Below are positions 27,526 to 27,834 of a DNA stretch of 64,000 nucleotides, piece after piece. Origin of the DNA: Curvularia clavata (Eukaryota); NCBI GenBank assembly GCA_023920165.1, contig CP089275.1, forward strand, positions 3,286,001 to 3,350,000. The letters are read 5' to 3'. Numbering within the stretch: the stretch's first letter is position 1; each line of letters begins with the position of its first letter. The notes beneath the pieces were generated by a model, which saw only the letters and a program-made list of their open reading frames with translations, had not been told where the DNA came from and made no database searches. The position numbers were made by a program, and so were the translations under genes.

Positions 27526-27551
27526 GTTGACAAGTGTTCAGGGGTCCAAGT

Positions 27552-27834
27552 CTGCAAATGGTTAGGGGTATTCCACGCTGGTAGATGCAGAGCAGAGCAG
27601 AGCATGATCCTTTACGCAGGTATTATCCTGATCAAGTTCAAAACCGTATAATCTCAGAACGAATCCAGCCATGGCCGGCTGGCACACTGAAGTGACCAAG
27701 CACAACAGCAGCCGAGACCGACATGGCTGGAGACGGACACCGGTTCATGCAGTATACTTAGCTGTAGAAAGTACCTAGGTGACTTGAGGACAAGACCCGC
27801 GTGCGGAGCACGGCCTGCACTGTGGCAGCCATAC
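27552..27834 (-). promoter_or_regulatory. Riboswitch-controlled 5'-UTR intron of THI4 with alternative 5' splice sites
   Basis: Donors GTATGG (27834), GTACTT (27774) and possibly GTATAC (27757). Branch CTAAC and acceptor TTTGCAG ending at 27552, 26 nt before the THI4 ATG. Confidence 0.8.
27602..27750 (-). ncRNA. TPP riboswitch aptamer in the 5'-UTR intron of THI4
   Basis: Minus strand reads GCATGAACCGGTG..long P3 (CCAGCCATG..CATGGCTGG)..CTGAGATTATACGGTTTTGAACTTGATCAGGATAATACCTGCGTAAAGGATCATGC. P1 GCATGA/TCATGC closes, and all conserved THI-box motifs are present. Confidence 0.95.

Follow-up and report, generated by a model that had tools for sequence, protein, structure and literature searches.

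The window analysed here, a 64,000-nucleotide (nt) stretch of contig CP089275.1 of Curvularia clavata, carries a THI4 gene on its minus strand. The translations of both exons match the Pfam family PF01946 (Thi4), with E-values of 5.5e-68 and 3.2e-37. The Thi4 product is a thiazole synthase involved in vitamin B1 (thiazole) synthesis. The leader of this filamentous-ascomycete gene very probably contains a thiamine pyrophosphate (TPP) riboswitch of the fungal Type I, the type of NMT1 and THI4, working as a splicing switch on an upstream open reading frame (uORF). RNA evidence was taken from the contigs of four sequencing runs from four studies (X1, X6, X12 and X14), which represent this organism or near-identical strains. 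The features of the locus are listed in the order of transcription, each with its basis.

27854..27907, minus strand: putative upstream leader intron of 54 nt (GTACTC ... GCTAAC ... TAG); homology with relatives.
27835..27853, minus strand: putative micro-exon of 19 nt, ATACTCGAACCCTCTCAAA, closed by donor 1; sequence and homology, with equivalents in transcripts L001, L012 and L015 of relatives.
27829..27834, minus strand: donor 1, GTATGG, with the uORF ATG (27832-27830) inside it; sequence.
27775..27832, minus strand: first 58 nt of the uORF, exonic only with donor-2 use or intron retention; X14 contigs 27775-27853 and 27524-27804.
27780..27812, minus strand: anti-aptamer strand, predicted to form 29 base pairs (bp) in four segments with 27640-27603; RNAduplex and minimum free energy (MFE) folding.
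27769..27774, minus strand: donor 2, GTACTT, weak (no G at +5); X14 junction contig.
27751..27762, minus strand: invariant block GCTAAGTATACT, directly 5' of the aptamer helix P1, containing the GT at 27757 and the TAA of the unspliced uORF; alignment of relatives.
27602..27750, minus strand: TPP aptamer of 149 nt; covariance model R1.
27552..27565, minus strand: CTAAC (27565-27561), the putative branch site, and the 3' splice site cAG (AG at 27553-27552); the X14 junction ends at 27552.
27526..27551, minus strand: leader portion of the THI4 exon, in which the TGA of the uORF (27540-27538) is followed by a 12-nt spacer to the ATG; sequence.
26466..27525, minus strand: THI4 coding region of 334 codons, with exons 27525-26871 and 26815-26466, an intron at 26870-26816, the ATG at 27525 and the stop codon at 26468-26466.

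An earlier note on this DNA, made from the sequence alone, had placed GTATGG at 27834, the ATG at 27832-27830, GTACTT at 27774 and the acceptor AG at 27553-27552 on the minus strand, and all of these positions are correct. It lacks the second leader intron and the micro-exon of 19 nt, and does not give the full extent of the anti-aptamer strand. C/TTAAC plus AG at the acceptor are kept in relatives.

The aptamer comprises P1 (GCAUGA/UCAUGC), P2 (AACCG/CGGUU), a long P3 of about 78 nt, the CUGAGA motif, P4 (CUU/AAG), P5 (CAGG/CCUG) and the loop AUAAUA. Relatives were collected by a protein-guided scan of metagenome contigs, which yielded 80 THI4 loci. The conserved core was found by motif search in 44 of 81 sequences, the window counted, and P1 (GCATGA ... 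TCATGC) encloses aptamers of 97-240 nt, the length differences residing mainly in P3. A covariance model, R1, was built from 21 more distant THI4 aptamers, with the window and its five closest relatives excluded. It has a single match in the 64 kb, at 27750-27602, with 90.1 bits and an approximate E-value (short calibration) of about 6e-24. The alignment to R1 at these positions contains P1, P2, the base of P3, P4 and P5, so the three-way junction is present. R1 also matches 58 of the 80 related loci, upstream of their ATG. The bounds that the earlier note had given for the aptamer are reproduced exactly by this independent model and by homology with at least 40 related loci.

The structure is supported by covariation. 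Among 54 distinct aptamer sequences, in an alignment that was fitted to R1 itself and hence favours the structure, pairing is present in 93.2% of the cells and 11 of 21 pairs are changed on both sides, a result reached in none of 500 shuffles; slid controls pair at 16-53%. The covarying pairs are located in P1, P2 and P5. The predicted MFE of the aptamer is -57 kcal/mol (z -3.2). According to PMC5882874, the ligand is contacted by CUGAGA in the junction J3-2, by the UAAU motif of the loop, and by the J4/5 pair through its two G's, whose spacing is conserved. CUGAGA, the loop motif (GGATAAT) and GCG are invariant in all 27 aligned aptamers, including that of the window. The distance from the G of TTGATC to GCG is equal in 23 of the 27, again including the window, and is longer by 1-2 nt in L013, L043, L055 and L060. 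On these sequence grounds the aptamer genuinely belongs to the fungal THI4 group of TPP aptamers, and it is predicted to bind TPP.

The contigs of X1 apparently derive from DNA of a variant strain. They differ from the window at 27682, 27685, 27719 and 27736, all in distal P3, and also at 27547 and 28094; none of the differences lies in the aptamer core. By MFE folding, the changes in P3 turn one G-C pair into G-U and break two pairs, which fits a weakly constrained P3 extension.

Upstream of donor 1, a further leader intron was recognized by comparison of relatives. Transcript L017 and genomic contig L016 are identical (100% in both flanks) except for 53 nt (GTACTC ... GCTAAT ... TAG) skipped in the transcript just before ATACTC. 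The window carries the matching motifs, namely GTACTC at 27907, GCTAAC at 27869-27864 and TAG/ATACTC at 27856-27854/27853, and the motifs TCC/GTACTCA and GCTAAC..TAG/ATACTC are conserved in relatives. By homology, donor 1 would close a 19-nt micro-exon (27853-27835) behind a 54-nt intron (27907-27854). This reading fits an X14 contig that ends exactly at 27853. The junction 27908/27853 itself was not found in the contigs of X1, X6, X12 and X14, which drop rare or very short paths.

The X14 contig end at 27853, followed by adapter letters, was also considered as a transcription start, and this was rejected, given that a micro-exon boundary fits better in the light of L017 and L016. A start downstream of 27834 would have spoken against the scheme of the earlier note, and nothing observed points to one. 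The transcription start would lie further upstream, behind a CT-rich stretch at about 28000-27960. The CT-rich stretch (ctccttctgatctccttcatcttcttcttcttctttacctc, minus strand, window positions 27960-28015) stands behind a TATTTAA-like motif and is likely a core-promoter region. A 32-nt piece of the X6 contig maps to it with 2 mismatches; the stretch is of low complexity, and the match is therefore uninformative. There is no ATG in 27960-27835. In L002, L005, L007 and L014, the upstream leader intron has an ATG (ATGGCTAAC or ATGGCTGAC, overlapping the branch-site motif), and the window has ATA at this place. Retention of that intron would thus add an upstream start in these four relatives and not in the window.

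The contigs of X6, X12 and X14 represent RNA: positions 26816-26870, the coding intron, are skipped in them with GT..AG ends. X1 reads through both introns. X14, a root metatranscriptome, is the one run recorded as RNA. One of its contigs contains the junction 27551/27775 with GT..AG ends, at a depth of 7, with 28+30 nt on the two sides and zero mismatches; the length of this contig is that expected for a splice path in a 31-mer graph. The junction skips 27552-27774, which contains the aptamer, and so the aptamer lies inside a leader intron, as the earlier note had it. The same intron is retained in all three RNA data sets: in X14 at a depth of 12.1, in X12 at a depth of 2.7 against 9.26 for the exon, and in X6 in a single contig of 1367 nt (depth 22.9), in which the coding intron is spliced and the leader intron is kept up to 27788.

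In the set of relatives L001-L032, the coding intron is present in 12 contigs, which are genomic, and absent from 19 short ones, which were taken as transcripts on account of this absence; L013 ends too early to be assigned. Eleven of the 19 transcripts retain the riboswitch intron. The equivalent of donor 2 is clearly used in L011 and L024, which carry the uORF, and probably in L018 and L030. The equivalent of donor 1 is used in L012, L015 and L001 (the closest relative, with 94% protein identity), and their leaders are free of ATG. The isoform of L027 is ambiguous. All three forms of the published model therefore occur in this clade. Donor 1 is kept as GTATGG, GTATGT or GTACGG in 13 of 13 distinct sequences of relatives. 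A third possible donor, the GT at 27757, gave no junction in the contigs of the organism or in the transcripts of relatives.

These data bear on the form that the OFF state takes. The TPP-bound RNA might mainly stay unspliced, so that plain intron retention would be the main OFF state and the donor-2 product a minor by-product without a role of its own. The retained forms do dominate the assemblies: the only X6 contig is of this form, in X14 it has a depth of 12.1 against 7 for donor 2, and among the transcripts of relatives 11 of 19 are retained against two to four spliced from donor 2. Yet contig depth is a poor measure of abundance, the growth conditions of the runs are unknown, and donor 2 is kept across the clade together with a reading frame that runs through the junction to a stop codon just before the ATG. 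We therefore consider this alternative rather unlikely. Moreover, the published NMT1 model already has both forms (PMC3597705), and the alternative would amount to a shift of weight within the same mechanism.

Splicing from donor 2, which joins 27775 to 27551, creates the uORF that the earlier note had described: 23 codons (MAATVQAVLRTRVLSSSHLDLDP) ending in a TGA at 27540-27538, in frame with the THI4 ATG and 12 nt before it. In unspliced RNA the uORF has 24 codons and ends, again as described, at the TAA at 27760-27758, just before GTATAC at 27757. The context of the uORF ATG is strong, with A at -3 and G at +4. The ATG lies inside donor 1, and the uORF is present only in the long isoforms, that is, those spliced from donor 2 or retaining the intron.

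The donor-2 form of the uORF was computed for 19 sequences of relatives; L025 and L064 fell outside the automatic rules. Its length is 19-24 codons, and 23-24 codons in all except L014 (19) and L022 (21). The spacer between its stop codon and the main ATG is 12 nt in 13 of the 19 sequences, corresponding to six of 12 distinct sequence types. The other spacers are 3, 6, 11, 15, 16 and 26 nt, and L014 gives 12 nt when counted from its second ATG. The transcripts L001, L011 (uORF MAATMQNMFRTWALSSSHIDFDP), L012, L015, L018 and L024 also show a stop codon 12 nt before the ATG. The letters of the 12-nt spacer vary between species and its length is constant, which hints at a length constraint. The frame is not strictly kept, given the spacers of 11 and 16 nt, and in more distant THI4 loci the uORF runs across the main ATG in another frame.

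The uORF could act through its product or its termination site, either by stalling at a conserved peptide with a Pro-stop end or by a ribosome that terminates 12 nt from the ATG and blocks scanning. A length of 23-24 codons and a Pro-stop end in most relatives would fit such a role, as would the recurrence of the 12-nt spacer despite its differing letters in the 13 sequences and the six further transcripts. In nine distinct sequences, however, codon positions 1, 2 and 3 have mean column entropies of 0.665, 0.369 and 0.555 bits, with no excess at the third position, and the best-conserved codons coincide with the anti-aptamer strand. We conclude from these two observations that the uORF is conserved as RNA and not as a peptide; a conserved-peptide uORF is not supported. 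The other spacer lengths, two of them out of frame, and the different arrangement in distant loci also argue against a dependence on the termination site, and we regard an action through product or termination site as improbable. Most likely the uORF acts as a generic barrier. The efficiency of re-initiation depends on the intercistronic distance. In the literature searched, which lacked the text of Moldovan et al. 2018 (Fungal Genet Biol), no paper was found that ascribes to the THI4 uORF a role through a conserved peptide or through its spacing.

The conservation of the uORF as RNA leads to its pairing with the aptamer. The earlier note had proposed that the sequence before donor 2 (TGTCCT/CAAGT) is complementary to the aptamer segment ACTTG-ATC-AGGATA. 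The complementarity exists, but taken alone it is within chance: with an 18-nt target it gives -12.7 kcal/mol (z -1.5), equalled by 14 of 200 shuffles, and in other loci the short pairing to an 18-nt target mostly gives z of -0.2 to -2.6. This 11-bp pairing is the core of a 29-bp helix between 27812-27780 and 27640-27603, which covers the 5' strand of P4, both strands of P5, the GCG junction and the 3' strand of P1. The RNAduplex energy of the helix is -34.8 kcal/mol, compared with -17.8 +/- 2.9 in 150 shuffles (z -5.9), none of which is as good. The unconstrained MFE structure of 27853-27552 has -104.2 kcal/mol and includes the helix; with the canonical aptamer enforced, the energy is -93.5 kcal/mol. 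Enforcing the aptamer thus costs 10.7 kcal/mol in the model, a gap that could plausibly be bridged by ligand binding and tertiary contacts, which are outside the fold model.

The helix was scored in 31 of 35 listed loci, with L080, L054, L067 and L051 left out. In 30 of the 31, including distant loci with a different sequence of the upstream strand, the z-score does not exceed -2.3; L077 fails. The real energy is unmatched by any shuffle in 22 of the 31 loci. In the 13 clade members, 82.8% of the helix cells are paired, compared with 26-44% when the partner is slid; in this alignment the aptamer side is nearly invariant, and the window itself supplied the structure that was scored.

Donor 2 may be covered by a second structure. 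All 13 aligned relatives have the sequence AAGTATA unchanged, and donor 2 (GUACUU) can pair with AAGUAU (27759-27754), which lies within the invariant block GCUAAGUAUAC(U). For 13 of 15 sequences, folding predicts a small hairpin that engages the GU of donor 2, in two registers, GUACUU/AAGUAU and GUAUAUU/AAGUAUAC. We consider it plausible that this hairpin is a second layer of the mask. It would also be the best available reason for the conservation of the block. L025 (positions 32-133) has the invariant AAGTATACT block twice (GCGAAGTATACT ... GATAAGTATACT) on the stretch from donor 2 to P1.

The distant loci L033, L034, L037, L043, L050, L062, L069, L074 and L076 have a strong proximal donor, CAG/GTAAC, directly 5' of P1 in a conserved GGTAACTATCTGAA block. 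Their anti-aptamer strand begins at the uORF ATG, with CCATGG pairing with the 3' strand of P1. From these sequences, the window clade looks like a derived version that has lost the GT of the distant loci (GCTAAG) and gained a weak new donor 17 nt further upstream.

We propose the following mechanism. At low TPP, the strand 27812-27780 would pair with the P4/P5 arm and the 3' strand of P1, so that the aptamer could not form, and donor 2, which starts 6 nt 3' of this helix, would be hidden in the small hairpin with the invariant AAGUAU block. Splicing would then proceed from donor 1 (27834) at the end of the micro-exon, removing the uORF ATG and leaving an ATG-free leader from which THI4 would be translated. 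With TPP bound, the aptamer would fold and free the anti-aptamer strand, and donor 2 would be used or the intron retained. The uORF would be translated and would stop 12 nt before the THI4 ATG, too near for efficient re-initiation, and THI4 would be off.

Several observations weigh against this interpretation or parts of it. The dependence on the ligand is argued by analogy from knowledge of the family. The donor-1 junction 27835/27551 was not found in the contigs of X1, X6, X12 and X14, a kind of data that cannot show absence, and the exon ahead of donor 1 is very short; the claim of the earlier note that splicing from the upstream donor removes the ATG stands for the three relatives with ATG-free leaders, and the 27834 junction was not seen in contigs of this organism. 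The RNAduplex shuffles keep the mononucleotide content only, and the scored loci are related to one another. Covariation in the 13 relatives does not single out the anti-aptamer helix: one pair is changed on both sides, which is equalled by 469 of 500 shuffles. At the one variable P5 position the helix partner does not follow, giving G.U in five sequences and a mismatch in eight. Judged from the sequences compared, the helix is conserved and specific, without proof by covariation.

The position of the helix is a further point of this kind. In the window it ends at 27780, 5 nt before the exon-intron border, leaving a 2-nt gap to position -3 of donor 2, where the U1-binding window begins, whereas in most of the wider clade AUCAAG/GU is paired right up to the splice site. 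The earlier note had proposed that pairing with the aptamer masks donor 2. The strand before donor 2 does pair with the P4/P5 arm in the MFE structure, but the helix does not overlap donor 2 directly. The hairpin at donor 2 is itself weak, at -2.2 to -7.2 kcal/mol and z of -0.4 to -2.3, and individually not significant.

The Rfam scores, finally, are low. At the gathering score, the whole window has no TPP match and its sole match is an intron-bearing tRNA. A permissive local scan of 27400-28000 with RF00059 gives 31.4 bits (E 2.9e-4), compared with the gathering score of 54.3 bits, and this match spans only 27679-27590, using a false P1 within P3. The same model at its gathering score passes one of 20 homologous loci, L069, which has the shortest P3 (57.3 bits). 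RF00059 is known to truncate or miss fungal aptamers with P3 longer than about 60 nt (PMC11683625). In view of this documented weakness and the failure of 19 of the 20 homologues, the sub-threshold score was not counted against the aptamer. The check with RF00059 that the earlier note had suggested thus yields nothing at the gathering score, and the THI4-specific model R1 recognizes the element clearly; the absence of a significant RF00059 hit, which that note would have taken as a refutation, would have wrongly rejected the aptamer at the threshold of Rfam itself. That the aptamer is a relic without TPP binding or regulation, and the splice variants noise, is very improbable: the score below the Rfam threshold and one extra nucleotide (U 27614) between GCG and AAGG relative to most relatives would suit it, but all ligand-contacting motifs named in PMC5882874 are intact and invariant, R1 gives 90.1 bits, 19 of 20 relatives share the low score through the long-P3 artefact documented in PMC11683625, and the closest relatives share the extra nucleotide, as A.

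The intron-bearing tRNA gene matched by Rfam lies elsewhere in the window, at 51667-51770 on the minus strand. It is 104 nt long, with a 33-nt insertion after the anticodon-loop position, and scores 54.8 bits.

The TPP riboswitch of Neurospora crassa NMT1 is reportedly the subject of Cheah et al. 2007 (Nature), and the leader intron of Aspergillus oryzae thiA reportedly that of Kubodera et al. 2003 (FEBS Lett); both are among the closest known systems. TPP riboswitches are described as the only riboswitch class known in eukaryotes (PMC5882874). In the Type I scheme, the aptamer is located in a leader intron, the donors S1 and S2 flank a short uORF, and an AG stands just before the coding exon; this type occurs on NMT1, THI4 and transporters in many fungi (PMC5882874). 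The THI4 riboswitch has been traced back to an ancestor shared by four ascomycete classes, with a variable and often extended P3 (PMC5882874). In the NMT1 and THI4 riboswitches, nucleotides of P4/P5 block a 5' splice site without TPP, and the main ORF is shut off by uORFs that the alternative products carry (PMC3597705). The arrangement in the window is that of the published Type I scheme (PMC5882874, PMC3597705), and the earlier note had already called the class known.

The closest of the compared systems is the fungal THI4 group of Type I (Mukherjee et al. 2018, PMC5882874; TPPsw-THI4 in PMC11683625). The window element shares with it the gene, the position, P1 and P2, the variable extended P3, S2 and a predicted S1 around the uORF and the AG before the coding exon, and its aptamer aligns column for column with 26 other aptamers. 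There is no essential difference; the micro-exon with the second leader intron, the AAGUAUAC block and the 12-nt spacer were not met in the passages of PMC5882874. N. crassa NMT1 (PMC3597705, PMC5882874) has in common with the window a leader-intron aptamer, two 5' splice sites (the distal one predicted in the window) and a uORF in the long isoforms. Pairing of P4/P5 near the proximal site without TPP and shut-off of the main ORF by the uORF make NMT1 a genetic OFF switch, and are predicted for the window too. Unlike the window gene, NMT1 belongs to the pyrimidine branch. The anti-aptamer strand of the window, in contrast to that of NMT1 as described in these sources, spans the aptamer's entire 3' half with the 3' strand of P1, forms the body of the uORF and stops a few nt before donor 2. 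N. crassa NCU01977, of Type II (Li and Breaker 2013, PMC3597705), likewise uses a fungal TPP aptamer to steer the choice of the 5' splice site by alternative pairing. It differs in lying in an internal transporter intron of 650-900 nt, where the 3' strand of P1 and a distant alpha element promote the distal site, whereas the window intron is 283 nt long, lies in the leader and pairs locally.

Beyond the textbook scheme, the clade may have a platform of its own, which we put forward tentatively and hold to be rather doubtful as a whole. In this platform, the body of the uORF would mirror, over 33 nt, the entire 3' half of the aptamer, donor 2 would be shifted off the aptamer and held by AAGUAUAC, donor 1 would be carried on a micro-exon of 14-19 nt between two leader introns, and the 12-nt distance from the stop codon to the AUG, constant although the spacer letters change, would be selected against re-initiation, making the spacer length a constrained element of the switch. 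The micro-exon, the full-length anti-aptamer as uORF body, the invariant block on the P1 side and the recurrent 12-nt spacer may be unpublished: nothing on these four points was found in the literature searched, and Moldovan et al. 2018 may already cover details of the uORF and the pairing.

The element is real and complete, and it is an ordinary example of a published mechanism. Its finer points, namely the anti-aptamer strand as uORF body, the P1-side block and the 12-nt spacer, are small additions to this known mechanism and not a new one. The locus provides one more well-documented eukaryotic TPP riboswitch, with direct RNA support for two of the three expected isoforms. The Rfam TPP model, applied at its curated threshold, overlooks the window element as well as 19 of 20 relatives, and automatic gene models of such fungi therefore probably lack the leader introns, the micro-exon and the uORF.

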